64,000 nt of DNA. It comes from an uncultured Candidatus Saccharibacteria bacterium. GTDB taxonomy: Bacteria; Patescibacteriota; Doudnabacteria; UBA920. The first letter of the stretch is position 1, and every line of letters starts with the position of its first letter. The stretch spans positions 19,815-83,814 of the forward strand of contig CAZBAS010000001.1 of assembly GCA_964490395.1 (NCBI GenBank). The letters are read 5' to 3'. A program made the position numbers and the translations under genes. This document shows positions 1,504 through 62,013 of this stretch, piece by piece. Below the pieces are notes generated by a model. It was not told the origin of the DNA, ran no database searches, and worked only from the letters and a program-made list of their open reading frames with translations.

Positions 1504-1564
1504 AGCAAGACTGAATTGAGAATAATGAATTAAGAATTAAAGTAAAATTAGAACCTCGCAAAGA

Positions 1565-2071
1565 CTATTCTTGATTCGTAATTCTCGCTTCTTGATTCTT
1601 CATTTTTATGATTACTTTCCTACGTGGTTCTAAACCGCTACTAGTTGATACGACCTCTGGATACTGCGCTTGTATGAGGGAGTGCACCAGCTTTCGCTCG
1701 TAATTTGGCATGGGCTCAAGCGCAACCGGGCGCGTAGTACGCTTAAGCTGCTCTACAGCGCCGCGTACAATTTCTTTAATGTACCACTCTCGCTTGCGCC
1801 TATAGTCATCCACATCCAAACTAAACCGAACAAACTGCCCCATGGTGCGACGAGCCACAATGGCCTGAGTAATTATTTCTAATGCATGCAAGTGAGCGCC
1901 GCGATGACCAATAAGCAGGTAGGATTCATTCCCAAGGTTAATGTTGAAAACCAAACCTTTAAGAATAGAGTCTTCGGCTTGTACGGTGGCAGCAAAACCC
2001 ATACTCGAAAAGAGTTCGAGGAGGAGCCGCTCTACACTGTCTTTGTATTCCGAAGACGCTTTTGAATCCAT
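1565..2071 (-). CDS. khpB: Jag/KhpB RNA-binding protein (Jag_N, KH, R3H).
   Basis: Position immediately downstream of yidC. R3H-like ERKLVHSLIQ and KH-like GHRGAHLHALEIIT motifs. Confidence 0.8.
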   Translation of the reverse strand: MDSKASSEYKDSVERLLLELFSSMGFAATVQAEDSILKGLVFNINLGNESYLLIGHRGAHLHALEIITQAIVARRTMGQFVRFSLDVDDYRRKREWYIKEIVRGAVEQLKRTTRPVALEPMPNYERKLVHSLIQAQYPEVVSTSSGLEPRRKVIIKMKNQEARITNQE

Positions 2072-2788: not shown

Positions 2789-2855
2789 AGAATTATGAAT
2801 TAAGAATCAAGAATTATGTGTAAAATCATAATTCTTAATTCCATATTCTTAATTC
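2789..2855. repeat. AT-rich imperfect inverted repeat (gaattatgaattaagaatcaagaattatg ... cataattcttaattccatattcttaattc) in the yidD-yidC intergenic region.
   Basis: ~29-nt arms with an 8-nt spacer, visible directly. Member of a recurrent gaattaagaat/attcttaattc element family (see 26890..26945). Confidence 0.6.
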
Positions 2856-3579: not shown

Positions 3580-3717
3580 TTAGGCTACAGTAAGCCGTTT
3601 TCGACCCTTGGCGCGACGACTTGCGAGTACATTTTGACCTGCTCGTGTCTGCATGCGCTTGAGAAAACCGTGAACTCGTAGGCGTCTTCGGACTTTTGGT
3701 TGATAGGTTCGCTTCAT
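3580..3717 (-). CDS. rpmH: 50S ribosomal protein L34.
   Basis: Hand translation of the minus strand gives [45 protein letters not shown] (45 aa). This is a near-consensus L34. It is absent from the ORF track because it is shorter than 60 aa. Confidence 0.9.
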
Positions 3718-5794: not shown

Positions 5795-5798
5795 CCAC

Positions 5799-6761: not shown

Positions 6762-6827
6762 AAAAATGTGATATTATTATTTCATAAAATATTTTTTGTC
6801 AGTTAAGAAATAAAAAGTAAACGTGTT

Positions 6828-7955: not shown

Positions 7956-7968
7956 ACGTTTTACCACC

Positions 7969-8997: not shown

Positions 8998-9007
8998 CTA
9001 TATAAAT

Positions 9008-9038
9008 AACACCCTTGTCTGAGCTGGGGTGTTTTTTA
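9008..9038 (+). terminator. Rho-independent terminator.
   Basis: Hairpin aacaccc-ttgtctgagctg-gggtgtt followed by a T run. Confidence 0.55.
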
Positions 9039-9061
9039 TATATCCGTGATAAAATGATTAC

Positions 9062-10156: not shown

Positions 10157-10160
10157 ACTC

Positions 10161-22000: not shown

Positions 22001-23726
22001 ATACAGCACCACCGCCAATCAAAAATGGGCATTTATTAGTGGTGAAAGCGGCGCGTATTTAAACGGAAACGCCTACTACGACGGCACCTGGAGATATCTC
22101 GACGGCGCCAACGGCGCATCTATGGTTAACGCCAATAGCGTGCTTAATGCGATCCTGTTCTACACAACCGCAACAACCGGCAGCACCGGAGGAGCCATTA
22201 GCAACTGGACAGAAAAAATGCGTATTGAAGGTGGTGGAAACGTGGACATCGGCACCAGCACATCAAAAGGACTTTTGACTGTTGCCCAAACCGACGCCGC
22301 GAACGACGAAGGTATTTACTTAGATACCGAGGAATCAACTACCACGCAAACGGTGTTTGCTATAGAGAGTGACGCAACCTCTGCTGATACAGTGAAATTT
22401 AAAGTTACGGCGGACGGCGAAACGAGCGCACTTCTTAATGGCCAAGGCGGAAACAACTTGTGCCAAAACGGAGTATTCGCTGGTGGTGTTGGAAAAATTG
22501 GTGATTGTACTTCGGACCGCAGATTAAAAACCAATATTGTTGACCTTGATGGTGGGGCGCTAGAAAAAATCATGCAGGTAAAACCTCGTGTATTCGACTG
22601 GATTAACGGCGCCGGACAACACCAGTCAGGGTTTATAGCCCAAGAAGTACAGGCTGTCATACCAGAGCTGTACAGGGGCGAAACTGCCGATGGCTACTTA
22701 CGGTTCTCCAAAGACCTGCTAGTCCCCTATCTCACCAAAGCGCTACAAGAGTTAAACCAGGTTTCCATTAAGACAAATGCCGACGGAACGATAAACCGAG
22801 ACTCGTTCGTGTTTGAAATGCCCGAAAACCAAGCCAATACGGCACAAATTACAGGGACAGGCACACAGGCCGTGGCCAGTACCGGATTTGTCATAAATCA
22901 AAAAGGAAGTGGCAATATTCTTCAACTCCAAAAAGATGGCATGGACAACTTCTTGGTAGCAAACGACGGTACAGTACACATTCACACAGACCTCGCAAGC
23001 GGTACTGTACTTGAAATAACCAATGCAAACACTTCCCTCTTTACTATTAACACCCAAGGCAATGCGGCACTCGCAGGTACATTGGTTGTAAAGAAAGATG
23101 TTGCAGTACTTGGAAGAATCCTCGGATCTACAGCCATAGTAGCCAAAAATACCAGCAACGAGACTATTCACCAAGGCGACCTACTTATGCTTACTGGTGC
23201 AACCGCAGAGCCAATGCTTGGAGACCAGCCAACCCTTACCGTTGCAAAAGCAGTAGCGGGTACCAACACTACCATTGTTGGCATAGCAGACCGCAACCTT
23301 TCTGACTTCAACATAAACCCTGACTCCCCTGTTGCCGATGACCCAACTACCATAAAACCTGGAGAATATGTAAGCATTGTTATTACGGGCACATACAAAA
23401 AAGTCTTTGTGAACGGCAGCGTTTCACTGGGAGACAAGCTAACCGCATCCATAATCCCAGGAAAAGCAGAAAAGCTCACAGCCAACACACCAGGGCAAGT
23501 GTTTGGTATTTCCCTCGACAACACCCCGGACACAACTGGTTCCATACGCGTTATGCTCTTATCCACTTTTCAACAAGTAACCCAAATAGTTCAGCAAGTA
23601 CCAGTTAGCCAAGCCGCCCCACCAGCACCAAACCAGAACAATAACAACACTCCCCCCCCTGATAACGGTGGAACAACAAGCGATCCTGTGACCCCTCCCG
23701 CAGAAACCCCATCACCTACAGAATAG
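13044..23726 (+). CDS. Giant (3560 aa) secreted Thr/Gly/Ser/Ala-rich repetitive surface protein. It has a phage-tail-fibre-like beta-helical repeat region and a peptidase S74 / intramolecular chaperone autoprocessing domain near the C-terminus.
   Basis: Putative GTG start with a classic signal peptide (KRTKLYALLALAGVALNWMPLFAPPAQA). Globular N-terminal domain. Recurring GNVGIGTTTP / SGTVGFGTTAP motifs. Long internal repeats. The segment CTSDRRLKTNIVDL...PRVFDWIN.....GFIAQEVQAVIPELY....YLRFSKDLLVPYLTKALQELNQ matches the S74 chaperone domain consensus. Pro-rich C-terminal tail. Confidence 0.7.
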   Translation: MAKHNLKTILNFRKRTKLYALLALAGVALNWMPLFAPPAQATVPKYINFQGKLTKVSDGTNVTNGSYAFEFKLYDASTSGTLLWTETYDQPSGACTKLAVTSGVFNAKLGSCASLASIDFTGGSIYLSVNFAPTGVSYDGEMSPRKQLVASPFALVANSVSGDGPINTVNSSATALTVAKSGSNYGLQVDTSTASAATGLKITSAAAASGIALSAISSGTNESITLDAKGTGSVSLGATSTGDILLGGGSGSTGCTVTNSTGAFACTAGGSFTTLGLSGAITGATGITSSGTINFSTLSASSAVYTDGSKNLTSTAPTSGAIGYWSRSGTTLQPTTSNDAISITGNSGDIATLTSSATEASNKTLNISQTGATSGTDYGAYISNTGAATNNVGLYTTTSGATNNYAAIFDSGTVGFGTTAPTAGKLHILAANTTQPAIAVQQPSANNNYSILLASTNNFGSNNLDLNYQDGNGIRMISNLNMNISAGSALNLTSGTASTYALPSNTASALRFTDGTNSYHTIDTRTTNSTSSAHTFATTAPTIASSSTSAYLLTTFTPGTQTYTGTTNTTSTGATAPLSVLFNQPTIAGNGTRTITETSNTVINGPTIASSSSGTETITSAYGLNILSGSALNGTGGAVTNGVGLSVNAPTGATNNYAALFNGGNVGIGNTAPTETLDVTGNAKIRGTLKIRSASNTGNLSILDAGGGVATIDNTGNSILAINGGSISTNFVTGNVGIGISNVTTPNAALQIATNGAASTPGVRLDGTWYAAGTSTTNKPQLLVEPTGTTSTTWSGAGTGIGANAASGFTGNLLDLQTNNASKFSVASDGTVITASTIFGGNDIYAGSSSYLAFSSRSKISSPADSNLLLTNAAANAFNLLQFGGTSSSFPALKRSTTILQARLADDSGYTSFDAGNFLLSGTNINTAGTLTNVAYKNAANTFTANNIFQPTVTTGTGATAGVQIAANSLTTGNGLDVSSTSLTTGNLAALSSSSTAGGASGTSTLLNLSRTGVNSNTAHTAYGLYSTVTNTNVTSGTNIAAYLSASGATTANYGLIVAAGNVGIGTTTPKGLLEIDGYAGQTILRDLGAAADEGGWSFTTSATTLTLGSTNDANNAGASLLVAKRGTGTTITSLYSPSTSTNFGLGDSTPASLLTVGNGDLFQVNSSGAIAAATGITSSGTINFSTLSASSAVYTDGSKNLTSTAPTSGAIGYWSRSGTTLQPATSNDVVAISSNAVAAGGVLDITSSGTVTSGNNAIRITANSVTTGVGVSLSTTGVTTGTALNITGPSTTGVTTGLSSGFIKATSDVGSGGTGGVLAYLAPDYSSASAATSYGLEINGTDSTTVSNNNYNLYSNLAMSGDATSKLGVAIYGNVSSSSTLADTTYGGLFGTSVSGAISTGSRNNYGIYAQPNVSSANTGGITNVYGAFLAPASSNSTTGSTVNVYGSYTTNQALLTTGGTINSYGNYIANGSVSTTGTSTQYGLYVESQTGADNNYTAVFAGGNVGIGTTTPTAFLHVGSNGAASNPGLKLSGSWFTGGDSTTTKPQALIEASGATSSGWSTSGTGLGINAPSGFTGRMIDVKLNGTSSFALNEAGGISILGQGVTNIGAAQAYWYQPSGATVSIGNNGDTGASNLLLRAGASGSSGGNITFNINNSNTGIWNSAGFGIGTGTPIDPLSISTAINASATHALFNLSNTALSSGSANGTYIGANPAAFTGNFFDFQVASSSVAKLTSAGALTVSSCTGCGSGATTFDAIGDPAGNGAINMGTTVQTLDWGATTTTDNLSITSSGTGITSGSVLKVTSATTGAVSNGLIQFTASGAYTSTGGLLSVTGNSTATGTLAKFSATGLTTGTGLTIAGGTAMTTGTVLGVSSATYNHANGETGNMASLIFSDATTTAGAVTSTTNGLNIASTIAATTSTSGTKTVNAINIASPTLTSCTGGASCVWNGVQITAPATTASFTSTALKVVANSLTTDTVASISATGQTSGIGLSITGGGANLTASGKLIDLQMGAATVGAGLNILSSGVYTGAGLVQLTANSATSGVIDSISGTGLTSGSAVRVTGSGATMTTGGELIDLVLGANTVGAGMTITSTGAYTGTGAADGLINIVANSLSSGFGSQYSFTGMTSGTGIKITGGGANLTASGKLIDLQMGAATVGAGLNIASSGVYTGAGLVQLTANSATSGVIDRISGTGLTSGSAVRVTGSGATMTTGGELIDLVLGANTVGAGLTVTSTGTYTGSGAADGLINVVANSLTTGLGSQYSFTGMTTGTGIKMTGGTAMTTGGLIQIGNGTYNHVNGETGSIAKILVTDATTTAGAVTSTTNGLNIASTIAATTSTSGTKTINAINIASPTLTSCAGGASCVWNGMQITAPATTASFTSTALKVVADSLTTDTGVSISAAALTTGNALSITAGGATALTSGAGLKVTGPSGAAAIANGLVQITAAGAYTGTGGLLNVTSAASTAGTLVNFTNNTASFTGTAVNISTSGITSGSAMQITGGSSMAAGGQLLGLSIGTAGAGTALNIVANGGTYTGTGLLAFNSNSLTSGTMMSVAANGSGQTSAKYIDIAQTGVTTGFTGNLINLSSTSTTGAATFINLTANSSTVGVGQAISMTGLTTGSALTITGPSSTGVTGSGILKVTADVGSGGTQGQLVSFSPDYSAGTASTGYGQTILGTDSTSTANSDNNLYSSLALTGNAAKTGYAFYGTVTSNSTTADTTYGANFDTSITGAISTGTRNTIGVRSAPATSGANTGGTTQLFGGNFAPSSTGSTTGATVNVFGAYVSNTATLTTAGTINSYGLYVDSGTTSTTGTSTAYGAYILAPTGADTNTGLLINTANAASIGQVIKASTSQTADLLQFQNSSGTVLMSPDFANSSSLWNFYNTSGTKMAVMGYDNANNAAFFQSIGIDGVLRARDAINGRDYAKINLNYTSGYISLSTNTGADAVERMRIDATGAVGIGASMTAPKQPNGLQMAYSTTANQKWAFISGESGAYLNGNAYYDGTWRYLDGANGASMVNANSVLNAILFYTTATTGSTGGAISNWTEKMRIEGGGNVDIGTSTSKGLLTVAQTDAANDEGIYLDTEESTTTQTVFAIESDATSADTVKFKVTADGETSALLNGQGGNNLCQNGVFAGGVGKIGDCTSDRRLKTNIVDLDGGALEKIMQVKPRVFDWINGAGQHQSGFIAQEVQAVIPELYRGETADGYLRFSKDLLVPYLTKALQELNQVSIKTNADGTINRDSFVFEMPENQANTAQITGTGTQAVASTGFVINQKGSGNILQLQKDGMDNFLVANDGTVHIHTDLASGTVLEITNANTSLFTINTQGNAALAGTLVVKKDVAVLGRILGSTAIVAKNTSNETIHQGDLLMLTGATAEPMLGDQPTLTVAKAVAGTNTTIVGIADRNLSDFNINPDSPVADDPTTIKPGEYVSIVITGTYKKVFVNGSVSLGDKLTASIIPGKAEKLTANTPGQVFGISLDNTPDTTGSIRVMLLSTFQQVTQIVQQVPVSQAAPPAPNQNNNNTPPPDNGGTTSDPVTPPAETPSPTE

Positions 23727-25481: not shown

Positions 25482-25769
25482 AGACCTGAATAACGAACGA
25501 CGAATTAAGCACGGAAATATCTTGGGGAAAACTGACGTATAAGAACCTCATAGCTAGTTGATAACTTTGACCCAATAGACCAGACCAATACTTTTCCCCA
25601 TTTAGTAATCCACCCTATGCACAAGTTATCCGCTAAAACCGCTGAGCCCAAAATGTATTTTTGCTTAATTCCTAATTCATAATTCGTCATTCCGCATTCG
25701 GGTTACCCACATATCCACCGCCCTTATTACTATTACTAATTTATTTATATATTTATTTAATAATAATCT
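25482..25769. other. Candidate oriC in the dnaA-dnaN intergenic region, with DnaA-box-like 9-mers and an AT-rich unwinding element.
   Basis: taatccacc (25606..25614), ttatccgct (25627..25635) and atatccacc (25711..25719) each differ from TTATCCACA at 2 positions. AT-rich tract tttatttatatatttatttaataataat (25741..25767) directly upstream of dnaN. Confidence 0.4.
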
Positions 25770-26876: not shown

Positions 26877-26889
26877 TTTAGTCCGAAGT

Positions 26890-26945
26890 ATGAATCAAGA
26901 ATTACGAAGTGTGTGTTCTTGAGTTCATAATTCTTGATTCATTAT
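26890..26945. repeat. AT-rich inverted repeat (atgaatcaagaattacgaa ... ttcataattcttgattcat) in the dnaN-recF intergenic region.
   Basis: ~19-nt arms with 2 mismatches. Same motif family as 2789..2855. Confidence 0.55.
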
Positions 26946-26963
26946 TCATAATTCTACTTTGCT

Positions 26964-28689: not shown

Positions 28690-28710
28690 CAATCATAGGC
28701 AGCTTTAAAA

Positions 28711-28750
28711 TATACCCACCAACTCGCGGTCAGGAGTTAGTGGGTATATT
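28711..28750. terminator. Palindromic terminator-like element (atacccaccaactc-gcggtcag-gagttagtgggtat) between convergent genes. A second copy lies at 45978..46018.
   Basis: 14-nt stem with one mismatch. A near-identical element occurs downstream of uvrB. Confidence 0.55.
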
Positions 28751-28787
28751 TAGATGAGTAGGGGGGGCCTGAGTTTTTCTTAAGCGT

Positions 28788-37846: not shown

Positions 37847-40714
37847 ATGGCTACTACCACAAAACACGCTCGATACATGCTTATAGATGGCAACGCCCTC
37901 GTGCATAGGGGCTTTCACGCTGTGCCCGGTCTTACTATTACCAAAACCGGGGAACCCATTGGCGCGGTATATGGATTTACCATGATATTGCTTCGCGCAA
38001 TTAAAGATTTAAAACCAACTCACGTTGTCTGTACCTTTGATTTGGCCGGGCCAACATTTCGTCACGAACAATACGCAGACTATAAAGGAACCCGTGCTAA
38101 AACGGCGGACGATTTAGTTCCGCAATTCCCGCTTGTAAAAGAGGTGGTGCGTGCTTTGAACATACCAATTTTTGAAAAAGAAGGCTTTGAAGCGGATGAC
38201 GTTCTTGGAACACTGGCGGTAGAGTTGTGTAAGCAAAATAAAGATGGTTGCGATGTTATGATAGTGACGGGCGATATGGATGCCATACAGCTTGTTAACA
38301 AGTGTGTAAAAATTTATACTTTGCGCAAAGGCATTACCGATACTGCCATATACGATGAAGCAGCTGTGCTGGAGCGCTATGGCTTTGCACCAAAGCAAAT
38401 GATTGACTATAAAGCGCTGCGCGGAGACCCGTCAGATAACATAAAAGGAGTAAAAGGCATTGGCGAAAAAGGAGCCACAGATTTAATAAAAGAATTTGGA
38501 AGCATAGACGCGTTGTATGAGGCAATCAAGAATCAAGAACCAAGAGTTAATGACCTCATAAAGCCACGCATACTTCAGTTGCTCATAGACCAAGAAGAGT
38601 CAGCTCGGCAATCCTACCACCTCGCGACCATTGTAACAAATGTGCCTATAGATATTGAAATCCCACCCTATAATTTTGGTGCGGCTGAATCTGCTGCCGC
38701 AGTAGAGGTTTTTAAAAAATTCGAGTTTAAGAGCTTGGTAGATAAGTTGCCGAAAGGGTATGACTCTGACGCTGGGCGAGTAACGGAAAGTGGCGTGTCC
38801 GGCCCCTCTCCTCGCGAGGAGAGGTTGGGAGAGGTCGCAGTAACGAATGATAATACATCAAAAGTTTCTATGACCCCCACTAGCTCCCCCTCAAGAGGGG
38901 GAGGACAGGATGTGCCACCTATCGGCAAGCAAGACTATCAGCTTATTGATACTGAGCAGAAATTAGATAAGCTCGTGGCGAAGCTGGAAAAGCAAAAAGT
39001 ATTTGCGTTGGACACAGAAAGCACTTCGCTGAGCATTATCGACGCAGAGCTGGTTGGTGTGTCTATTTGTTACACGCCTGGAGAAGCCTACTATATTCCA
39101 GCTGCTACCGTGCTTTCACATAAGGCTTTTGTGAAAATACTTGAAAGCAATATGCATAAAGTTGGTCATAACATTAAATTTGACCAGCACATGTTGCAGA
39201 ATGCTGGTGTTACTCTCGGCGGTATATATTTTGATACCATGATTGCATCTTATTTACTCAATGCAGGTACCCGCCAGCATGGATTGGATGCACTTGCGTT
39301 CAACGAACTCGGCTATCAAATGCAGCCGATAGAGGATTTAATAGGTAAAGGCAAAACAGCTATTGCCATGGACCAGGTTCCGGTAGAAAAAGTTTCGTGG
39401 TATGCCGCAGAAGACGTGGATATTACGTTTCGGTTGTACGAACTATTTGCACCCAAGCTTACCGCAGATAATCTAGAAGCCATATTCGCCGACATAGAAA
39501 TGCCGTTGGTTCCCGTGCTGGAACGTATGGAGCGAGAAGGCATCTTATTAGATGTACCATTTTTAAAGAAGCTTTCGGACGAAGCAGAAAAAACCATTTA
39601 CAGCCTTACCAAAGACATACACAAACTGGCAGAAGAAGAGTTTAACATTAACTCACCTACACAGCTTAGAGAAATATTATTTAATAAACTCGGTTTAAAA
39701 GCAGAGTTTGCTAAAAAAACAAAAACAGGGTTTTCTACTGCTGCTGGTGAACTTGAAAAACTGCTTGGCCAGCACCCCATTGTTGAAAAAATAATGCAGT
39801 ACCGCGAGCTTACGAAACTGCAAAATACCTACTTGCTGGCACTACCAGAAATGGTAAACGCTACCACTAAACGCATTCACACCAGTTATAACCAAACCAT
39901 TGCTGCTACGGGCCGGCTTAGTTCTGTAGACCCAAACCTGCAAAACATACCCGTAAAGGGCGATGGTGTAGGTAGTGAGATTCGCAAAGCCTTTGTGGCC
40001 CAAAAAGGATATAAGCTCCTCAGTTTAGACTATTCACAAATTGAACTTCGGGTGGTTGCGCATTTATCTAAAGACGAGAGCATGCTCGAAGTATTTAAGT
40101 CGGGCAAGGATATTCACACGAGCACTGCCATGGGTATATTTAATGTGCCAGCAGATAAGGTAACCAAAGACATGCGTCGCCACGCAAAAACAGTTAACTT
40201 TGGTATTCTCTATGGTTTGTCTGCATTTGGTTTGTCGTATCGCATAAGTGAAATAGCCAACGGGGATGCAAAAGAGTATATAGATAAATACTTTAAGACC
40301 TATCCGCGAGTGAAGGAGTATTTAGAGAAAGTAAAGACCGAGGTGAGAGATAATGGGTTTGTAACAAACGAACTTGGCCGTATGCGCAAGTTTCCTGAAA
40401 TAAAATCGAGCCAGTTTTTTATTCGCCAAGCCGCAGAGCGCGCCGCCATTAATTTTCCCATCCAGTCTTTAGCTGCTGATGTTATAAAAGTCGCCATGAT
40501 TAATATCTGGTCAAAGATCAAAGATAAAGGATTAGAGATAAAGATGTTGCTTCAGGTACACGACGAACTCGTGTTTGAAGTAAAGGAAAATAAGGTACAA
40601 GAATATATCAAACTTATAAAACCTCTTATGGAAGACGCCATACAATTGTCTGTCCCCGTAACCTCTGACGCCAAAGTTGGAGATAGCTGGGGCGAAATGG
40701 AGCAGTGGTCATGA
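37847..40714 (+). CDS. polA: DNA polymerase I.
   Basis: 5'-3' exonuclease (LIDGNALVHRGFHA), 3'-5' exonuclease and polymerase domains (RRHAKTVNFGILYG, QVHDELVFE). The start was taken at the ATG at 37847, since the track ORF at 37730 adds a non-conserved 39-aa extension. A low-complexity linker (SPSRGGGQDVPP) sits between the exonuclease domains. Confidence 0.9.
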   Translation: MATTTKHARYMLIDGNALVHRGFHAVPGLTITKTGEPIGAVYGFTMILLRAIKDLKPTHVVCTFDLAGPTFRHEQYADYKGTRAKTADDLVPQFPLVKEVVRALNIPIFEKEGFEADDVLGTLAVELCKQNKDGCDVMIVTGDMDAIQLVNKCVKIYTLRKGITDTAIYDEAAVLERYGFAPKQMIDYKALRGDPSDNIKGVKGIGEKGATDLIKEFGSIDALYEAIKNQEPRVNDLIKPRILQLLIDQEESARQSYHLATIVTNVPIDIEIPPYNFGAAESAAAVEVFKKFEFKSLVDKLPKGYDSDAGRVTESGVSGPSPREERLGEVAVTNDNTSKVSMTPTSSPSRGGGQDVPPIGKQDYQLIDTEQKLDKLVAKLEKQKVFALDTESTSLSIIDAELVGVSICYTPGEAYYIPAATVLSHKAFVKILESNMHKVGHNIKFDQHMLQNAGVTLGGIYFDTMIASYLLNAGTRQHGLDALAFNELGYQMQPIEDLIGKGKTAIAMDQVPVEKVSWYAAEDVDITFRLYELFAPKLTADNLEAIFADIEMPLVPVLERMEREGILLDVPFLKKLSDEAEKTIYSLTKDIHKLAEEEFNINSPTQLREILFNKLGLKAEFAKKTKTGFSTAAGELEKLLGQHPIVEKIMQYRELTKLQNTYLLALPEMVNATTKRIHTSYNQTIAATGRLSSVDPNLQNIPVKGDGVGSEIRKAFVAQKGYKLLSLDYSQIELRVVAHLSKDESMLEVFKSGKDIHTSTAMGIFNVPADKVTKDMRRHAKTVNFGILYGLSAFGLSYRISEIANGDAKEYIDKYFKTYPRVKEYLEKVKTEVRDNGFVTNELGRMRKFPEIKSSQFFIRQAAERAAINFPIQSLAADVIKVAMINIWSKIKDKGLEIKMLLQVHDELVFEVKENKVQEYIKLIKPLMEDAIQLSVPVTSDAKVGDSWGEMEQWS

Positions 40715-42877: not shown

Positions 42878-43891
42878 ATGTCAGAAATAAAAGAGCAAAA
42901 TACAAGCGAAATTACTATTTATAAAGACAATGAAGGCCCTGAAGTCCAGGTCAGTTTTGAAGGCGACACAGTATGGCTTTCACAGGCACAAATGGCGGAA
43001 TTGTTCCAAAAAGACGTAAAAACTATTTCCGAGCATATTGCCAATGTTTATAAGGATAAAGAGTTAGAACCAGAAAAAACTTTGCTTAAGAAAGCCAATT
43101 CTGGTATTTCCGGAATTGCTTCAAATAAGCGGATATTTTACTATAATTTGGACGTAATAATATCTGTTGGCTACCGAGTAAAATCTAAGCGCGGTACCCA
43201 ATTTCGTATTTGGGCTACACAACACCTACGTGACTATTTACTGAAGGGTTTTGTGGTAAACCAGGAACGGCTTAAGGAACAGTCGCAGGCAAAGCTAAAA
43301 GAGCTGGAAGGCGCAGTAAAGCTTTTACAGGGAGCAGTTGAGACACATCGGTTAGATGGGTATGAAAAAGAGTTGCTCAATATAATTACCGACTACACTG
43401 CTACATGGGTACTGCTGAATAAGTACGACCACGACGAGCTAGAAATTGAGAACGTCACTAAAAAGTCAGTTTATAAACTCGACTACGAAAAAGTTACTAA
43501 GTCCATTGCGCAATTTAAAAAGCGGCTCATGGCCAAAGGGGAGGCGAGTGATATATTTGGCACTGAGTCAGGTAGTAAGTTCCAGGGTTTGCTGGGTAGC
43601 ATAGAACAAACTTGGGATGGTAAGCCACTGTACGAAAGCCTGGAAGAAAAAGCTGCACATCTTTTGTACTTTGCCATAAAGGATCACCCGTTCGTAGATG
43701 GAAACAAACGCATAGGGTCACTATTATTCCTGCTGTACCTGATAGAAAATCGTGCGCTATACAATAAACGCGGAGAGCGTAAATTAAACGACAACGCCTT
43801 GGCTGCCCTTGCCCTCTTAATCGCAGAAAGCAAGCCCGATCAAAAAGAGGTTATGGTAAAATTAATTGTAAACATAATTAACAAGAAGTGA
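42878..43891 (+). CDS. RhuM-family N-terminal domain fused to a Fic/Doc-fold domain with a Doc-type active-site motif.
   Basis: RhuM signature VWLSQAQMAELFQKDVKTISEHI...YYNLDVIISVGYRVKSKRGTQFRIWATQHLRDYLLKGF. C-terminal HPFVDGNKRIGS matches the Doc motif H-x-F-x-D-G-N-K-R. Confidence 0.7.
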   Translation: MSEIKEQNTSEITIYKDNEGPEVQVSFEGDTVWLSQAQMAELFQKDVKTISEHIANVYKDKELEPEKTLLKKANSGISGIASNKRIFYYNLDVIISVGYRVKSKRGTQFRIWATQHLRDYLLKGFVVNQERLKEQSQAKLKELEGAVKLLQGAVETHRLDGYEKELLNIITDYTATWVLLNKYDHDELEIENVTKKSVYKLDYEKVTKSIAQFKKRLMAKGEASDIFGTESGSKFQGLLGSIEQTWDGKPLYESLEEKAAHLLYFAIKDHPFVDGNKRIGSLLFLLYLIENRALYNKRGERKLNDNALAALALLIAESKPDQKEVMVKLIVNIINKK

Positions 43892-43986
43892 GCAGTAAAT
43901 AGAAAATAGTAATCAGAAAATAGAGACCTGCAGTGGTTTGTGTCTGATTACTACTTACTAATTTCTGCTTACCTACCTACATCCCC

Positions 43987-45977: not shown

Positions 45978-46018
45978 ATATACCCAGTAACTCACGGTCG
46001 TGAGTTACTGGGTATATG
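45978..46018. terminator. Palindromic terminator element downstream of uvrB (atacccagtaactcac-ggtc-gtgagttactgggtat), second copy of the 28711..28750 element.
   Basis: Perfect 16-nt stem. Shares atataccca..aactc / gagtta..tgggtatat with the copy at 28711..28750. Confidence 0.6.
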
Positions 46019-46054: not shown

Positions 46055-48118
46055 CTATTTCTTTTTCAATTTTGAAAGTTTCTTTGCGGCGGTTATTTTG
46101 TCTCGTAGGGTTGCGGCCAACTCGAATTCCAAGTTTTTTGCAGCGAGCTCCATTTGGTTTTCTAGTTCTTCCAAGTAGTACTTCAACTCTTCTTTGTTGA
46201 GCTTGCCCGGATCAACTTCTTGTATACTGCTCCCTGGAAGTGTTTCTGGTATTTTACTTCCGGCCATGCGCGTATCTGCTATGGCTTTTTGTATGCCTTT
46301 AGGAGTTATACCGTGCTCTTCATTGTATTTTTGTTGGAGCGTGCGACGTCTGGTGGTTTCTTTTATGGCGCGGTCCATGGAACCGGTCATGCGGTCTGCA
46401 TACATAATAACGTGCCCGTGTAAGTGGCGAGCAGCACGGCCAATAATTTGCATAAACGCTGTTTCGCTTCTCAGGAACCCTTCTTTGTCTGCATCGAGTA
46501 TCGCCACGAGCGATACTTCGGGGAGGTCTAGTCCTTCACGTAAAAGATTAATGCCTACTAGGACATCATAAATTCCCAAACGCAAGTCACGCAGGGTTTC
46601 TATGCGCTCCATGGTGTCTACTTCGGAGTGAATGTACTGAACTTTAATATTTGCCTCTTTTAAATACTCGGTAAGCTCTTCTGCCATGCGCTTTGTAAGG
46701 GTTGTTACCAGCACACGCTCATGCTTTTTTATGCGGTCCTGAATTTGTTCAAGCAGGTCGTCTACCTGATTCTTGATCGGCTTTATCTCTATGGTCGGGT
46801 CCACTAAGCCTGTTGGACGTATAATTTGCTCCACTACTGTAGGAGTAGAATTTCCAATTTTCAATTTCCTATTTCCAATTTTTTGATGAGTTTTTATATT
46901 CTCATTTTCTTCGACACTCTTGCGAATCTCGTACGGTCCTGGTGTGGCAGACACATAGACCACTTGATCAACTTTCTTTTCAAATTCAGCAAACTGCAAT
47001 GGGCGGTTGTCCATGGCACTGGGCAGGCGGAATCCATAATCCACTAGTGTTGTTTTGCGAGCGCGGTCGCCATTGTACATGGCACCAACCTGGGGGATGG
47101 TTTGGTGGGATTCATCCACGAACAATAAAAAGTCGTCGGGAAAATAATCAATCAAAGTAGAGGGTGGGTCGCCGGCTTGGCGTCCGTCCATGTGGCGGGA
47201 ATAGTTTTCTATACCAGCGACAAAACCCGTATTTGTAAGCATTTCCAAATCAAAGTTTGTTCGTTGTTCAAGCCGGGCTGCCTCAAGAATCTTCCCTTGC
47301 CCGCGCAATACCGCGAGCTGCTCAAGTAGTTCATTGCGAATATTTTTTATGGCCGTGTGTATGGCGTCTTCGGTTGCTACAAAGTGTTTTGCCGGAAATA
47401 TGTGAATGCTATCAAGCACGTCCAGTGTTTCGCCAGTAAGAACGTCGCGGCGCTCAATTTTTTCTAATTCATCACCAAAAAATTCCAAACGGATAAGTGT
47501 GTCTTCGCTGGCAAGTACAATTTCCAAGGTGTCACCTTGCGCCCTGAATGTGCCGCGCTTTAAGTCAAAATCGTTCCTGTGGAATTGTAAATCCGTAAGT
47601 CTGCGCAGGAGTTTATCGCGCTTGAGCTGCTGTCCCTTTTTAAGCTCCATGGATAGCTCCATGTAGTTCGCTGGGTTACCAAGACCATAAATACAGGACA
47701 CCGAAGCTACTATTAATACATCTTTTCGGGTGAGCAAGCTTTGCGTTGCAGCGTTGCGGAGCCGGTCTATTTCTTCGTTTATTTGGGTTTCTTTTTCTAC
47801 AAATGTGTCAGAGCGGGGGATATACGCCTCCGGTTGGTAGTAGTCGTAGTAGGAAACAAAGTAGTGTACGGCGTTGTTGGGGAAAAATTCTTGGAACTCG
47901 CTGGCCAGTTGAGCTGCCAGAGTTTTGTTGTGGCACATTACGAGCGTAGGCCGTTGTAGCTCTTGGACTACATTTGCCATGGTGAATGTTTTGCCGCTTC
48001 CGGTTACGCCCAAGAGCGTCTGGTGTTTGTTTCCAGATTTTAAGGAGGCGATTATTCCTGCGATGGCCCTTGGTTGATCACCTGCCGGTTTATACGTACT
48101 TTGTAGGTCAAACTGCAT
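46055..48118 (-). CDS. uvrB: Excinuclease ABC subunit B.
   Basis: [14 protein letters not shown] (Walker A), helicase motifs, beta-hairpin region, and C-terminal UvrB/UvrC interaction coiled-coil. Contains a ~20-aa low-complexity insertion ([20 protein letters not shown]). Confidence 0.95.
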
Positions 48119-57415: not shown

Positions 57416-58363
57416 ATGGAAGATGTAATACAAGTATCCAATCTAAAGAAAGAATACGAATTGTCTCGCGCAAATGAGTCTGGAGAAAAAGTATTTCCAG
57501 CGCTACGCGGTGTATCGTTTGAGGTGCACACAGGAGAAGTTTTTGGCATTCTTGGACCAAATGGTGCTGGTAAAACAACCACCCTTGAGATTATAGAAGG
57601 TATTCGCAGGCAAACCTCCGGCAGTGTTGTTGTGCTTGGGTTAGATAACATAGACAGTAGCCATGCTATCAAACGGCGTATAGGCGTGCAATTGCAAAGC
57701 AGTGAGTATTTGCCAGCGCTTACTCTCGTGGAGCTACTGGCCCTATTCGCTTCAATTTACGGAACCAAAAAAGACCCCATGCAGCTGTTGGGGTTTGTGG
57801 GTCTGCAAGAGAAGGCTACAGAGAAAGTAAAAAACTTATCTGGTGGCCAGAAACAGCGGTTTACTATAGCAACAAGTTTGGTGAACGATCCGGAAATTAT
57901 TTTTCTTGACGAACCTACTACGGGTCTAGACCCCCGTGCGCGTCACGATATGTGGGATCTTATTAAGCAAATAAACGCCCGTGGCACCACTGTTGTGTTG
58001 ACCACACACTATATGGAGGAGGCGGAGTTTTTGTGCAATCGTGTAGCTATTATGGACCATGGCCAGCTTTTAAAAATAGACGAGCCAAAACGGCTGATCA
58101 ATGACCTTGCACATACTACTCAAATTGCTTTTCTAACCAGCGCGGAGTTGCCAGCAGGTATATGGGCGTCTATTCAAGATAGTATTGAAAAAGTAATCAA
58201 TCAAAACCCTAAGGTTATATTGGAGGTAACATCACTCGATGTGGTTGGTCGGGTGGTAGATTTGCTAAAGCAGTGGAATATTGGTTTCAGCGGTTTTACC
58301 GTACGCACCGCAAGCCTTGAGGACGTGTATTTGGACTTAACCGGAAAAGTGTATGGAGAATAA
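57416..58363 (+). CDS. ABC transporter ATP-binding protein (ABC-2 type exporter ATPase).
   Basis: Walker A GPNGAGKTT, signature LSGGQKQR, Walker B IIFLDEPTTGLD. Confidence 0.9.
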   Translation: MEDVIQVSNLKKEYELSRANESGEKVFPALRGVSFEVHTGEVFGILGPNGAGKTTTLEIIEGIRRQTSGSVVVLGLDNIDSSHAIKRRIGVQLQSSEYLPALTLVELLALFASIYGTKKDPMQLLGFVGLQEKATEKVKNLSGGQKQRFTIATSLVNDPEIIFLDEPTTGLDPRARHDMWDLIKQINARGTTVVLTTHYMEEAEFLCNRVAIMDHGQLLKIDEPKRLINDLAHTTQIAFLTSAELPAGIWASIQDSIEKVINQNPKVILEVTSLDVVGRVVDLLKQWNIGFSGFTVRTASLEDVYLDLTGKVYGE

Positions 58364-59000
58364 TGCCCAAGGTTTGCGGAAGATTGTAATGGCTTTTGCA
58401 ATCGCTGCGTTCATTTTCTGGCTTTCCTATTATTTTATTTCATCGCAAGTGGTGAGCGTTATATTTCATAAAAATATACTATGCACATCCGTAGGGTTGA
58501 ATAGTAGTAAAGTTCAGAAATGTTATGACGTGCCGAATAAAATGGGCTTTGGTACCCCTTCAGAACTATACGAACCATTAGAAAACAAAGAAATTCCTGA
58601 AGATGTTGTGGCTAGTAATTTCTTTTTCTTTAGCCATATGGGCTTGGGTGCGGCTGTGTTGTTATCCAGTTTAGTGCTCCGCCGCTTGAACTCAAGTGGT
58701 GGGCGGAATGCTGCGGCGCAAGAACCTGGCGGCTATGAAGCAACTATTTCTCTAAGAACTACAGAAGAAGAGGGGAGGCATGCACCATTTTTTAGTGGGT
58801 ATGCAGCGGAGATATATACTGAAGGAGAATTGGTACCTGTTATATTCACGCTTACCAATAGAGAAATGGTTTCGCCGGGGGAGATTGCTGAGGTGGTTAT
58901 GAGGATAAACGCCCAATCGAACCTTGGTATGGGTCAAGAATTTGAAATTCAAGACCACGGGCACATAATCGGTAGTGGTACTATTACTAAAATTTTATAA
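58353..59000 (+). CDS. Membrane-anchored protein whose C-terminal ~90 aa resemble EF-Tu domain 3, inserted between the ABC ATPase and permease genes.
   Basis: N-terminal TM (IVMAFAIAAFIFWLSYYF). The C-terminus YEATISLRTTEEEGRHAPFFSGYAAEIYTEGELVPVIFTLTNREMVSPGEIAEVVMRINAQSNLGMGQEFEIQDHGHIIGSGTITKIL aligns with EF-Tu [89 protein letters not shown]. Overlaps the upstream gene by 11 nt and shares its ATG/stop with the permease gene. Confidence 0.6.
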   Translation: MENNAQGLRKIVMAFAIAAFIFWLSYYFISSQVVSVIFHKNILCTSVGLNSSKVQKCYDVPNKMGFGTPSELYEPLENKEIPEDVVASNFFFFSHMGLGAAVLLSSLVLRRLNSSGGRNAAAQEPGGYEATISLRTTEEEGRHAPFFSGYAAEIYTEGELVPVIFTLTNREMVSPGEIAEVVMRINAQSNLGMGQEFEIQDHGHIIGSGTITKIL

Positions 59001-59746
59001 TGTATATGTCATTTTTAGAGCTCCTCAAAGCTAATTTAAAAATCGTTTTCCGCGATACAGGCGGCTTGTTTTGGACGGTGGCGTTGCCAGTGGTTATTTA
59101 TGTTGCGTTATCGCTCTTGCCCATTGGCAACTTCTTTAAGCTCGACTTCAACTACTCTGCATTTGTCCTGCCGGGTATTATTAGCTATGTAATAATGCAA
59201 GGTGGTATATACGGGCTTGGATATTGGATGGTAGACATGCGCGCGCAAGGGGTTATAAAGCGGTTTGTGGTAACACCACTTAGGCAGTGGGAGCTCGCAC
59301 TCGCAGTTGTGTGCTCGCGGCTTGTGGTTATGCTTATACAAGTGGTATTGCTCACCGCAATCGGCGTTCTTGCGTTCCATACGGCGTTTTACTGGAACAT
59401 ATTTTCCATCTTGCTATTTACTATTCTGGGAGGGAGTATATTCCTTATGCTTGGTCTCCTTATTTCTACGGTGGCAAGTAGTTACCAGGCAGCGGCCCCT
59501 ATTACTGCGGGCATAGGTTTGCCCCTCACCGTGCTTGGTAATATGTTTTTCTCAGTGTCAGTACTGCCCGTGGCGCTACAGTGGGTAGCAAAGGTTTTGC
59601 CTATCACGTATTTAGCTCAGGGCTTGCGCGCGGTATATCTTGAGCCGTTTAGCATAGAGCCGCTCGCAATTCCCGTACTCATTTTGTTCGGGTGGTTTGC
59701 TCTCATGCTCGCGCTTACTGTGTGGCGCTTTAAATTGAAAGAATAA
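59000..59746 (+). CDS. ABC-2 type transporter permease.
   Basis: Six TM helices in the ABC-2 permease topology. Translationally coupled to the upstream gene. Confidence 0.8.
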   Translation: MYMSFLELLKANLKIVFRDTGGLFWTVALPVVIYVALSLLPIGNFFKLDFNYSAFVLPGIISYVIMQGGIYGLGYWMVDMRAQGVIKRFVVTPLRQWELALAVVCSRLVVMLIQVVLLTAIGVLAFHTAFYWNIFSILLFTILGGSIFLMLGLLISTVASSYQAAAPITAGIGLPLTVLGNMFFSVSVLPVALQWVAKVLPITYLAQGLRAVYLEPFSIEPLAIPVLILFGWFALMLALTVWRFKLKE

Positions 59747-59778
59747 AAAATAGACTCCATACCGGAGTCTATTTTTTT
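59745..59778. terminator. Bidirectional rho-independent terminator.
   Basis: aaaaaa-tagactcc-atac-cggagtcta-ttttttt. Confidence 0.7.
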
Positions 59779-60131
59779 AAAATCTTAAGCGGGACATTCC
59801 AGGCTAGCGAAAGGGCTTGTGCTATGGAAGTGCCAATGCGTATGCCGGTGTAGGAGCCTTGGCCAGCGGAAACGGAAATAGCTGTCAGTTGTCTGTTGTC
59901 AGTTGTCAGTTTTTTCTTAGGCTTAGCCTGCTGCTTTGGTGGCAGGGGATGAATGCCTTCTTTACTGAGAAATGCGTCTAGATGTTTGAGAATGTCGCCG
60001 TTTTCGTGGTATTCAAGGGCTATGGTGTCTTCGGCAATAGTTTTTTTACCGTCTAGTAGTTTAAATTCGATTTGCTCAAGTTTTGTGGTATTGAGATGTA
60101 GGATCATAAGTGAGGAAATGTCTAATATCAA
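59769..60131 (-). CDS. tsaB: Truncated TsaB-like protein (N-terminal half only), carrying a low-complexity insertion with a 4x heptamer repeat.
   Basis: MILHLNTTKLEQIEFKLLDGKK... and LTAISVSAGQGSYTGIRIGTSIAQALSLAWNVPL match the TsaB N-domain, including the GPGSFTGxRIG motif. The protein ends right after this motif at ~120 aa. The insertion KQQAKPKKKLTTDNRQ is encoded by (ctgacaa)x4. Confidence 0.55.
   Translation of the reverse strand: MILDISSLMILHLNTTKLEQIEFKLLDGKKTIAEDTIALEYHENGDILKHLDAFLSKEGIHPLPPKQQAKPKKKLTTDNRQLTAISVSAGQGSYTGIRIGTSIAQALSLAWNVPLKILKK
59884..59911. repeat. Tandem heptamer repeat (gtcagtt gtctgtt gtcagtt gtcagtt) inside the tsaB-like coding sequence.
   Basis: Read directly. 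4 x 7 nt. Confidence 0.8.
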
Positions 60132-60206
60132 ATTTCTAATGTCTAATATAATACTAACTCTACGAATTCAGGTCCTTCATTAGAAGTTAGGTATTAGGAA
60201 TTAGGC
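60108..60206. repeat. ~90-nt AT-rich palindromic intergenic element (copy 1) flanking murE. It shares ctaatatc-aatttctaat...cattagaa-ttag-tattaggaattaggcatt with the copy at 61567..61647.
   Basis: Direct comparison of the two murE flanks. The terminal 19 nt tattaggaattaggcatt are identical in both copies. Confidence 0.7.
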
Positions 60207-61541
60207 ATTTTGTAACCGCTTTAGCTCTTCGCGGGTTACGGTACGGTCATCCCAGTCTTCGTACGTATTGTTCGCGCGGGCAATTTTTTGTTCTGCGCCT
60301 TTGCCGGTAATGAGCACAAGGTCGCCGGGCTCTGCGAGTGAAAGAGCTTTTGTTATTGCTCCGCGGCGGTCTGGGTTTCGAAAGAGCGTTTGACCAATAA
60401 CTTTACCTTCCGCAACTGCTTTGTCTGCAATATCATGGATTATACTTTGCGGGTCCTCATCAAACGGGTCTTCATCGGTAATTACTGCTATATCTGCAAA
60501 TTTACCCGCAAGAGTTCCTAAGTCAGTTCGTCTGGATTTGTCACGTACTCCGCCAGTTGCGCCGAACACTTGAATAATGCGGTTATGGGGCCATGATTTT
60601 ACTGTTTCGTATAACGCAGTCATGGATGCTTTCTCGTGCGCGTAATCTATGAGTACGGTAAATGGTTCGCTTTGCAAAATCTCCATGCGTCCAGGTATTG
60701 GCTGGAGTTTGTTCGCCGCTGCAGATATAGAGTTCATATCAAACCCTAACGACTCAGCTACGCCAACCGCTGCGAGTACATTGTATATATTGAATTTACC
60801 CGGCAATAGAATTGAAAATTGAAAATTGAAAGTTGAAAATTTCGACCCTGCATTATCACTTTGTACATTCGTCGCCACTACATTTGCCGTAGCATTATCA
60901 ATCCCATACGTAACATGCTTGTCCGCCTTAAAGTTCAAATAATACAATCCGTGCTCGCTGTCTATATTCGAAACTATCGTTTTCGAAAGGTTTTGATTTA
61001 CTTTCAACTTTTCACTTGTCACTTTCAACTTGTTTAGCCCCCTAAACAGTATTCCTTTTGCCTCTTTATACGCCTGGAAACTTCCATGTGCTTCTATGTG
61101 GTCTGGGGTGAGGTTGGTAAAGACCGCTATATCAAAGTTAATGCCAAAGTGGCGGTGCTGTGCCAAGCCTTCGCTCGACACCTCAACTACTGCATACTTT
61201 TTTCCGGCTTTTACCATGCGGGCAAGTAGACTGTGGGTAACAGGACCGGACATTTGGGTCATGCGGAATTCGTTCATGCGCTGCCCGCTACCGTCATCTA
61301 TTACTGCTGTGGTAACTAAGCCACATGATGCCCCAAGGTTGTTGAGTACCTGGTAAATAATGTGTGCAGTAGATGTCTTACCTTTGGTGCCAGTTACTCC
61401 AATAACAATAAGCTTGTCGCTTGGCTTTCCATAATAATAGTGCGCAAGCAATGCTAAAGTGCCGTGGTAGTACGGTTGTGCAGCTTTAAAAACTTTTGCT
61501 GGTATGAGTTTTCGAGCTATGTTTTTTACAGTGCGTATCAT
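60201..61541 (-). CDS. murE: Mur ligase, most similar to MurE (UDP-MurNAc-tripeptide synthetase), with a ~70-aa low-complexity insertion.
   Basis: GVTGTKGKTST (Walker A-like), DYAHEKAS, and LLPGKFNIYNVLAAVGVA (MurE LPGxHNVxNxLAA). The insertion is bounded by inverted heptamer-repeat blocks. Confidence 0.7.
   Translation of the reverse strand: MIRTVKNIARKLIPAKVFKAAQPYYHGTLALLAHYYYGKPSDKLIVIGVTGTKGKTSTAHIIYQVLNNLGASCGLVTTAVIDDGSGQRMNEFRMTQMSGPVTHSLLARMVKAGKKYAVVEVSSEGLAQHRHFGINFDIAVFTNLTPDHIEAHGSFQAYKEAKGILFRGLNKLKVTSEKLKVNQNLSKTIVSNIDSEHGLYYLNFKADKHVTYGIDNATANVVATNVQSDNAGSKFSTFNFQFSILLPGKFNIYNVLAAVGVAESLGFDMNSISAAANKLQPIPGRMEILQSEPFTVLIDYAHEKASMTALYETVKSWPHNRIIQVFGATGGVRDKSRRTDLGTLAGKFADIAVITDEDPFDEDPQSIIHDIADKAVAEGKVIGQTLFRNPDRRGAITKALSLAEPGDLVLITGKGAEQKIARANNTYEDWDDRTVTREELKRLQNA
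60811..60838. repeat. 4x heptamer tandem repeat (attgaaa)3-gttgaaa inside murE. It pairs as an inverted repeat with the block at 61000..61034.
   Basis: Read directly. Confidence 0.8.
61000..61034. repeat. Heptamer tandem repeat (actttca acttttc acttgtc actttca acttgtt) inside murE, the approximate reverse complement of the 60811..60838 block.
   Basis: Read directly. Confidence 0.75.
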
Positions 61542-61566
61542 GGGGATAGTATACCAATTTGAATGC

Positions 61567-61647
61567 CCAATATCTAATTTCTAATTTCTAATGCGTTAAT
61601 CCGATTTTCTTGCATTAGAAATTAGATATTAGGAATTAGGCATTATA
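61567..61647. repeat. ~90-nt AT-rich palindromic intergenic element (copy 2) upstream of murE, with internal hairpin ctaatttctaatgc...gcattagaaattag.
   Basis: See copy 1. Confidence 0.7.
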
Positions 61648-61668
61648 TTTTACCGTCTGTGCTAAAAT

Positions 61669-62013
61669 ATGTATATGAACAATCAGCCGCTTTCTATATT
61701 TAATTTTCCAATTTGGTGGTATAGCGAAGGTTTGGGTCTTGCTTGGCGACATTGCCAGTCTCGGTTTCGGTATGTCTTGCGCTCAACCGGGCTAGTTATT
61801 TTTTTGCGCAATATTACCCAACCTTTGTATGGTGATACTACAAGGCAGGGGAGAATTATTAGTATTTTTTTGCGGGTCATATTGCTCTTTTTTATTTTCT
61901 TTTGGACAGCTGCTCGCCTTGCGTTTTCGTTTGCGCTCTTTTTAGTACATGTGGTAGCGCTCCCATTCGCTATTGTCATGATTATCTATCAATTGTTTAG
62001 TCTCTTTACCTAG
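61669..62013 (+). CDS. Small polytopic membrane protein of unknown function.
   Basis: 114 aa with three hydrophobic helices. Confidence 0.35.
   Translation: MYMNNQPLSIFNFPIWWYSEGLGLAWRHCQSRFRYVLRSTGLVIFLRNITQPLYGDTTRQGRIISIFLRVILLFFIFFWTAARLAFSFALFLVHVVALPFAIVMIIYQLFSLFT

Follow-up and report, generated by a model that had tools for sequence, protein, structure and literature searches.

Why should a single gene of cell wall synthesis be bracketed by two copies of the same AT-rich palindrome? The question is raised by a 64,000-nucleotide stretch of DNA from an uncultured Candidatus Saccharibacteria bacterium (contig CAZBAS010000001.1, positions 19,815 to 83,814), called here the window, or W when it is set beside the related or comparison loci from other genomes and contigs, which carry L-numbers. 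In this window murE (60201..61541, minus strand), which encodes a UDP-MurNAc-tripeptide synthetase of 446 aa with the domains PF08245 and PF02875 and whose relatives are named MurE, is flanked by two elements, E1 and E2. A sequence-only reading of the stretch had proposed for them a promoter/terminator cassette, an element akin to a miniature inverted-repeat transposable element (MITE) or an attenuator, with a local duplication as the fallback. The explanation favored here, with an even balance of confidence, is that E1 and E2 are dispersed palindromes built of heptanucleotide units (heptads), shaped by length-neutral conversion and retained as spacers or insulators at gene boundaries. Most of the uncertainty sits in the functional half of this explanation, in which the function is deduced from sequence features. 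As judged by comparison between genomes, both elements belong to a family of imperfect AT-rich palindromes that is dispersed and specific to the clade. They are in turn one manifestation of a phenomenon that runs through the whole lineage, resembles the short tandemly repeated repetitive (STRR) elements and extends over intergenic and tolerant coding DNA.

Both look-alike elements are present, with bounds slightly shifted from those first proposed. E1 (60117-60209) is a CTAAT-type heptad palindrome running from the murE stop to the start of a tsaB-like gene, with arms at 60117-60147 and 60178-60209 and a loop of about 30 nt (60148-60177). E2 (61562-61644), of the same type, lies in the divergent intergenic region on the other side of murE, with arms at 61562-61594 and 61612-61644 around a 17-nt loop (61595-61611). 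The window holds the exact 18-mer TATTAGGAATTAGGCATT at 60192 and 61627 and nowhere else, and three matches are found with up to three mismatches, against 0.12 expected. In a pairwise alignment of E1 with E2, the left arms match at 27 of 31 positions and the right arms at 30 of 32, the matches including the "degenerate" positions of each unit, and the loops are unrelated and cannot be aligned. In each arm about 4.5 heptanucleotide units follow one another as a degenerate tandem array (CTAATNN, in inverse form NNATTAG), to which Tandem Repeats Finder assigns period 7 and 3.4-4.6 copies; this periodicity, like the arrays inside murE described below, had been overlooked in the earlier reading. 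In the orientation of murE the arm reads AATGCC TAATTCC TAATATC TAATTTC TAATG, followed by the loop and the inverse. The layout of the family is accordingly one of arms of about 31 nt with 4-4.5 units, AATGCC-(TAATNNC)x4 plus inverse, around a loop that evolves freely. The internal palindromy claimed for both copies holds to unequal degrees: it is strong in E2 (arms of 33 nt that are 88% complementary, RNA minimum free energy -35.7 kcal/mol, z = -8.2), whose whole intergenic region folds with z -7.4, and decayed in E1 (arms of 25 nt that are 80% complementary). In the sequence itself, CTAAT and ATTAG recurring every 7 nt put TAA and TAG stops into each of the six frames.

The CTAAT family in related genomes

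The MurE relatives span 91% to about 50% identity, and several of them are named Candidatus Doudnabacteria. At the E2 site, hairpins of the CTAAT type are found in W, L033, L008, L004 and L003, and other hairpins stand at the same place elsewhere: a related heptad in L007 and L020, the CACAGAT type in L001, the TTTTGTCA type in L029, which is the closest relative (91% MurE identity), and a perfect 22-bp non-heptad hairpin in L005. The intergenic regions of this site have z <= -3.5 in 8 of 9 cases and fall into roughly 4-5 unrelated sequence types; the E2 site retains a hairpin through sequence turnover. The E1 site carries a CTAAT hairpin in W, L029 and L030, a single TTCTTAA array in L001, different or weak hairpins in the others, and a canonical terminator where synteny is broken.

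The CTAAT palindrome is also found at other gene boundaries of the relatives: upstream of ruvA (L030, L003), between ruvA and femAB (L001, L008, L033), between murA and mreB (L147) and adjoining tig (L068). It constitutes therefore a dispersed family, not two local duplicates, and the fallback of a local duplication is removed by these copies. In scans of metagenome and viral sequences for CTAATNNx4, only L068 and L147 belong to the family among the matches listed, most of which are unrelated heptamer-rich contigs, cyanobacteria-like to judge by their units. Four metagenome or viral contigs (L188, L252, L111 and L057, two of them viral) are extremely rich in heptamers: they show many units and inverted arrays placed side by side, the count reaching 17 arrays in 11 kb, and they were judged from their units alone to be cyanobacterial or cyanophage-derived. 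The CTAAT copies share a source sequence, because W-E2, L029-E1 and L068 have the same left-arm core TAATTCC-TAATATC-TAATTTC-TAATG, 26 nt in which even the eight "variable" positions agree. Between copies, orthologous or not, identity is 73-94% in the left arms, 61-91% in the right arms and 38-72% in the loops. Recognizable homology of the loops is restricted to close pairs (72% for L004-L003), the loop identities of W-L003 (67%) and W-L008 (61%) being near background for short AT-rich loops, and the intergenic arms range from 23 to 33 nt between orthologues.

These observations bear on the possibility that the palindrome is mobile, as a non-autonomous element of the MITE kind or of the repetitive extragenic palindromic (REP) and REP doublet (REPIN) kind, copied by a trans-acting transposase such as a Y1 enzyme of the REP-associated tyrosine transposase (RAYT) type recognizing the hairpin. 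MITEs, Correia elements and Rickettsia palindromic elements (RPEs) are small, AT-rich and hairpin-capable, and they can overlap gene ends and supply stops. The dispersed copies, the identical 26-nt arm at the non-orthologous loci just named and the conservation of arms around freely varying loops all fit such an element. So does its presence in the ruvA-femAB intergenic region of L001, L008 and L033 and its absence from the orthologous region of L030, where the sequences have diverged too far for an empty site to be delimited. On the other side, E2 is inherited vertically across at least five genomes, with homologous loops between close pairs, many unrelated heptad units share one architecture, and the copy number in the window is low. 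No transposase or RAYT (Y1) gene is present among the 43 window proteins scanned, and no target-site duplication or other flanking direct repeat was seen by eye (flanks GGAA and TTGT for E1, TTTG and ATAT for E2). The arrays inside genes, in addition, arise in situ and have the same length as in distant homologues, which is another difference from MITEs, Correia elements and RPEs. The dispersal and the conserved arms of the MITE-like proposal are thus retained here, and mobility itself is considered unlikely.

Heptanucleotide arrays across the clade and inside genes

Period 7 is the only enriched short tandem period in the window, with 8 arrays against 0-1 for each other period from 4 to 12. 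The same enrichment is repeated in the related loci L001-L008 (1-6 arrays each) and is essentially absent from the distant Patescibacteria loci L009-L018 (0-1 arrays). In 222 kb of clade DNA 63 arrays were counted, 36 of them with 4-4.9 units and the longest reaching 46 nt; one more array lies in about 4 kb of sequence from beyond the window, taken from a strain 99.7% identical to it. At the level of these sequences, period-7 arrays are a trait of the clade of Doudnabacteria-like genomes.

The arrays are not confined to intergenic DNA, and two of them lie inside murE. Array 1 (61000-61031, minus strand) consists of coding-strand AAGTTGA/AAGTGAC units and encodes the peptide KLKVTSEKLK; array 2 (60810-60841, minus strand), with the coding-strand unit TTTTCAA x4.6, encodes FSTFNFQFSI. 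An alignment of 19 homologues down to 47% identity has no gap at either array, and an RPE-like in-frame insertion was ruled out for both, since they add no residues relative to these homologues. What varies is the unit of the near-perfect arrays found at the same codons in the relatives. At the position of array 1 the relatives carry (AAGTTAC)4 (L001, L030), (AAGAGAC)4 (L033, L002) or AAATTAC (L004), and mixed units are found in W, L029, L003 and L005. At array 2 the units are TTTTCAA in W, L029 and L033, CTTGYCA in L001, L030 and L002, AACTTAC in L003, TAGCTTC in L004 and GAAATTG in L008. The spacing between the arrays is 186 nt wherever both anchors were found, except in L005 (270 nt); periodicity is lacking in L007 and weak in L006. 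With different units at the same codons and the same length, different lineages have therefore fixed different variants across the whole array. This pattern is concerted evolution, which simple slippage by plus or minus 7 nt is unable to yield in a reading frame, and the heptad arrays have been homogenized without change of length. In perfect coding arrays the units are stop-free in all three frames. Further arrays inside genes are found in polA (38524-38545 and 40511-40545), in uvrB (46849-46881) and in the tsaB-like gene, whose (TGTCAGT)x4 array (59883-59911) has a unit shared by W and L029 that differs from the one at the same position in L001 (AACCTAC). A conserved hairpin between the two murE arrays was considered and rejected, their complementarity being 19.9 matches within a genome against 19.2 across genomes; in genes the periodicity is maintained and pairing is not.

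The mechanism proposed for these arrays would keep them periodic by length-neutral conversion in a 7-nt register, either through slipped misalignment of a transient kind or through gene conversion within an array. Their inverted partners would arise by fold-back template switching, or would be copied from other members of the family. The murE arrays, re-homogenized at fixed positions and constant length, fit such a conversion better than they fit expansion and contraction. Strain comparisons were made as well: L030, L031 and L032 are identical, and W and L274 have 0 differences in three hairpin regions, with only about 0.3% divergence over the 1-7.5 kb stretch. Over positions 1-11500 these two strains are mostly about 0.3% diverged, with patches of 12-19% at 7500-8000 and 9500-11500, in surface-protein genes, which suggests recombination tracts; they also differ by a 12-nt GGT/GGC repeat indel at 5123.

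In the window, the arrays are biased toward intergenic DNA (7 of 13 within about 9% of the sequence), and inverted pairs occupy seven sites. The earlier reading had suspected a family of AT-rich hairpin elements from sites at 2789..2855 and 26890..26945. Both are real heptamer-armed hairpins: a GAATTAA type between yidD and yidC (2789..2855, z -6.4) and a GAATCAA/GAATTAC type between dnaN and recF (26885..26954, z -4.9). The suspected family is borne out by the seven heptamer-armed sites and by the CTAAT type at other loci of the relatives. An AAATAGA-type hairpin (43888..43972, z -5.8) lies between Fic/RhuM-like and DinB-like genes, and decayed inverted arrays of the GAATTAA type (1513..1604, z about 0) are found at the boundary of jag (R3H) and a PaaX-like gene. 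In the dnaA-dnaN intergenic region, inverted heptad arms (25484-25526 and 25647-25703, together 25484..25703) surround an oriC-like core. Intergenic hairpins are frequent in the window in general, with z <= -3 in 16 of 30 regions and in all orientation classes.

The dnaA-dnaN intergenic region (25482-25769) is oriC-like by its DnaA-box-like 9-mers, its AT-rich tract (25730-25769) and a GC-skew minimum near 25 kb, and the window carries the origin region, with the gene sets rpmH-rnpA-yidD-yidC-jag and dnaA-dnaN-recF. The intergenic region 3488-3579, between rpmH (3580..3717, minus strand) and rnpA, contains period-9 arrays, in which AGTTTATAA is repeated x4 at 3493-3529 and CTTTAAGAA, in inverse orientation, x3 at 3541-3570; they form a nine-base counterpart to the heptad hairpins. 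Gene 3' ends at 28708-28751 and 45978-46017 carry hairpins of another family, not built of heptads, that share ATATACCCAnnAACTC arms, and one of the two has a perfect 19-bp stem.

The whole set of arrays could also be a functionless by-product, that is, a neutral filler that a lineage-specific bias of mutation (misalignment by 7 nt together with template switching) creates in a reduced genome poor in repair, and that persists only where unconstrained. This explanation agrees with the presence of arrays in tolerant coding segments, with the failure of the two murE arrays to pair (19.9 versus 19.2), with decaying copies such as E1 and the site at 1513-1604, and with the rapid sequence turnover at the E2 site. 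It is less easily reconciled with orthologous arms that are 76-94% identical around randomized loops, or with a hairpin that 8 of 9 genomes have at the E2 site, in about 4-5 independent sequence types, against an intergenic base rate of about 53%. It is held here as rather unlikely.

Promoters and gene boundaries at the murE locus

The spacer function attributed to E1 and E2 has to be examined in the context of the genes around them. Downstream of murE, E1 ends 9 nt ahead of the ATG (60107) of the tsaB-like gene (59769..60107, minus strand), a TsaD-family fragment. The end of its arm, AATGCC followed by TAA on the minus strand, supplies the last two codons of murE (N, A) and the stop (60201-60203). 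A gene stop codon lies likewise within the first CTAAT-type unit for murE in L029 (after MSNS) and L030 (after RNS) and for murA in L147; the arrangement is true only for murE (W, L029, L030) and murA (L147), not for ruvA in L001.

Upstream of murE, a 112-aa membrane-protein-like gene (MNNQP..., 61675..62013, plus strand) diverges from it and is followed by a Clp/AAA+ ATPase gene that starts at 62025. E2 occupies the gap between two back-to-back promoters with leaderless geometry. On the murE side, a putative extended -10 element, TGgTATACT (61548..61556, minus strand), lies 6 nt upstream of the ATG at 61541, in the arrangement TAGATA-17-TATACT with TG. On the other side, -10-like elements form an inverted pair, ATTTTACC-N6-GCTAAAAT (61647..61668), facing both directions: the right copy, TGcTAAAAT (61660-61668, plus strand), stands 6 nt before the ATG at 61675, and the left copy faces E2 and murE. 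The pair is kept as ATTTTAGC-N6-GCTAAAAT in L033, L008 and L004. TATACT-N6-ATG was found upstream of murE in 12 of the 12 murE loci read, and TGnTAAAAT-N6-ATG in every locus where the divergent neighbor flanks murE. Such a geometry would imply leaderless transcripts, with E2 upstream of both. The inverted GCTAAAAT could nevertheless start a transcript at the base of the E2 hairpin, so that transcription of E2 is conceivable. The idea that the proximal arm provides a -35 element at fixed spacing was rejected; it fits murE (TAGATA-17-TATACT), not ruvA, where the arm units would lie at spacings of 7, 14 and 21 nt.

The same start is common in the window. Among 43 window genes the most frequent arrangement, seen in 7, puts a -10-like hexamer exactly 6 nt ahead of the ATG; examples are at 9062, 24111, 28135, 57416, 59000, 61541 and 61675, and no obvious Shine-Dalgarno motif was seen ahead of most window genes by eye, without a formal scan. 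Taken together, these features suggest that leaderless mRNAs are frequent.

The placement of E1 directly after the murE stop, and of a conserved -10-like TAAAAT/TATAAT upstream of E2 that faces murE and could start a transcript at the hairpin base, are the arguments for a control of murE at the RNA level, with E1 as an intrinsic terminator or 3' stabilizer and E2 as a 5' attenuator or leader hairpin. Like Rho-independent terminators, the elements are hairpins at gene boundaries, E1 following a stop; unlike them, they have long AT-rich stems with periodic mismatches. Neither E1 nor E2 possesses a GC-rich stem with a U-tract on the murE strand, and the terminator scan lists neither. A true bidirectional intrinsic terminator, with a stem and T-runs, is found nearby between convergent genes (59745-59777) and illustrates the contrast. 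E1 folds weakly on the murE strand (z -1.7), the conserved promoter of murE is downstream of E2, 6 nt from the ATG, no alternative-pairing architecture was found, and the same element adjoins unrelated genes. At the gathering score Rfam returned no match for E1 or E2; permissive settings gave only eukaryotic microRNA precursor models, at 22-31 bits against cut-offs of 47-195, and these sub-threshold matches reflect merely a long hairpin. The terminator or attenuator of the sequence-only reading is abandoned on these grounds, and RNA-level control of murE is highly improbable. E1 and E2 are probably not a murE-specific regulatory cassette; they are no terminator, no attenuator, no demonstrated MITE and no RPE-like insertion.

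According to the explanation favored here, the palindromes at gene boundaries would instead be retained as structural spacers, by virtue of their TAA/TAG stops in six frames and of an RNA hairpin or a DNA cruciform. They would keep apart closely packed expression units, some of whose genes start directly at a promoter of the -10, 6 nt, ATG kind. Several observations weigh against this explanation. The E1 site has no consistent hairpin among the relatives, and RNA folding, which had been recommended for each copy, bears out E2 (z -8.2) and leaves E1 weak (-16.9 kcal/mol, z -1.7, on the murE-sense strand; -22.9 kcal/mol, z -2.4, on the plus strand). It is not obvious what a hairpin would do between two promoters that face outward. 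Within the 64-kb window only E1 and E2 are of the CTAAT type, short of the high copy number of REP/REPIN families, and the near-identical strains gave no change of length or unit that would inform the conversion step. In a covariation test on eight CTAAT copies, 78.7% of the cells are paired against 80.3% in shuffles and 3 double-change pairs are found against 4.9, giving no support for compensatory changes; all eight copies have mismatches at two heptad positions. The conserved feature is the heptad CTAAT core in inverted arrays, not base pairing, and a core kept without covariation fits a sequence-specific reader better than a purely structural role.

Such a reader could be an OB-fold or cold-shock-type protein that binds single strands, or a DNA-binding regulator, for which the arrays would be candidate sites, inverted so as to serve both strands or a hairpin. 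Besides the CTAAT core kept across loci and genomes, the constant array size of about 4.5 units and the fact that CspB binds one heptamer per monomer (PMC4679880) are in favor of this proposal. It is made quite unlikely by the many units that share the architecture (GAATTAA, AAATAGA, TTTTGTCA, CACAGAT and the units inside genes), by the non-heptad, GC-richer hairpin that takes the place of E2 in L005 and by the lack of a candidate protein. A broader proposal holds that the Doudnabacteria-like clade has an active process that is neutral in length, or else a factor dedicated to reading heptads, by which arrays of about 31 nt are written into DNA and re-homogenized, tolerant segments of the essential genes murE, polA, uvrB and tsaB included, and that inverted CTAAT arrays were co-opted as six-frame-stop or insulator cassettes for leaderless genes. 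This is improbable as a whole. If it were true, the tiny and numerous genomes of the clade would make the responsible gene findable by phyletic correlation, and the long-open question of why 7-nt repeats dominate the long simple sequence repeats of bacteria would be addressed. For annotators, the hairpins overlap stops and promoters and should not be taken for gene-specific regulators or scars of mobile elements without further evidence.

Two other features of the window stand apart from the arrays. A 426-nt tandem duplication (19038-19888, 79% identical) lies within a giant open reading frame (ORF) of 3560 aa (13044-23726), which belongs to a cluster of surface-protein genes that have Big_7, dockerin and Fn3-like domains. 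A 215-aa ORF (58353-59000) that matches only the C-terminal domain 3 of EF-Tu separates the ATPase gene of an ABC-2 transporter from the permease gene.

Relation to known heptanucleotide repeats and palindromes

The STRR or heptamer repeats of cyanobacteria were reportedly described by Mazel in 1990 and by Vioque in 1997. Among the long simple repeats of bacteria, heptanucleotides are reported to be the commonest (Mrazek 2007, as cited in PMC4679880 and PMC4692102), and such repeats have been described in cyanobacteria, Xanthomonas, Beggiatoaceae, Bacteroidetes and a few other groups, their origin and function being unknown. The closest architecture is that of the GGGAATC repeats of Xanthomonas, studied together with the GGGGAYT repeats of Nostoc (Rehm et al. 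2015, PMC4692102). These are degenerate heptamers, mostly of about 4 units and intergenic, and 70-75 of the approximately 185 Xanthomonas arrays form convergent inverted pairs capable of a stem-loop or cruciform. Their positions and their single or paired type are conserved between species, and their sequence and length vary (PMC4692102). The Xanthomonas and Nostoc units are G-rich, however, and were studied as formers of G-quadruplexes, whereas the Doudnabacteria-like units are AT-rich and have no G-tracts. The present arrays differ further by the coexistence of several unrelated units, by one arm sequence dispersed across loci and genomes, by their Patescibacterium host and by a maximum of about 6 units, against up to 26 in Xanthomonas and Nostoc (PMC4692102).

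The cyanobacterial STRR/heptamer repeats and the TAACTGA repeats of Beggiatoaceae (PMC4679880; bioRxiv 10.1101/2022.06.06.494920) resemble the present arrays in their lineage-specific excess of heptanucleotides, their many units, their location near start codons and promoters and their occasional stop-free arrays in ORFs. They have no known function, and slippage of the polymerase has been put forward for them (Mrazek 2007, as cited there). They differ in being mostly direct and often long, and TAACTGA is a single dominant unit with one inverted case. Fixed-length, position-conserved arrays in an essential gene, homogenized to different units, are not described in the cited STRR and TAACTGA literature. 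Among palindromes, REP sequences, bacterial interspersed mosaic elements and REPINs (for the last, PMC3116915) are likewise short, imperfect and intergenic, with conserved arms, a variable loop and a frequent location at gene 3' ends. The elements of the window lack, by eye, a GTAG-type 5' motif, and they are distinguished by internally periodic arms, a low apparent copy number and the absence of a RAYT gene from the window. Tandem interspaced guide RNA (TIGR) arrays, DNA-uptake sequences and MraZ boxes were set aside on architecture or density.

A full-text literature search of incomplete coverage found no description of heptamer arrays in Patescibacteria, which is absence of evidence only. 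A reduced clade of this phylum with many sequenced relatives offers an unusually clean comparative system for the origin of such arrays, and it allows a search for genes that co-occur with them. The verdict reached here is that the arrays of E1 and E2 belong to a known kind of heptanucleotide repeat, in a phylum that is new for it. What distinguishes the local version is the combination of AT-rich units with stops in six frames, an arm sequence dispersed between loci, a fixed array length and concerted evolution inside genes.

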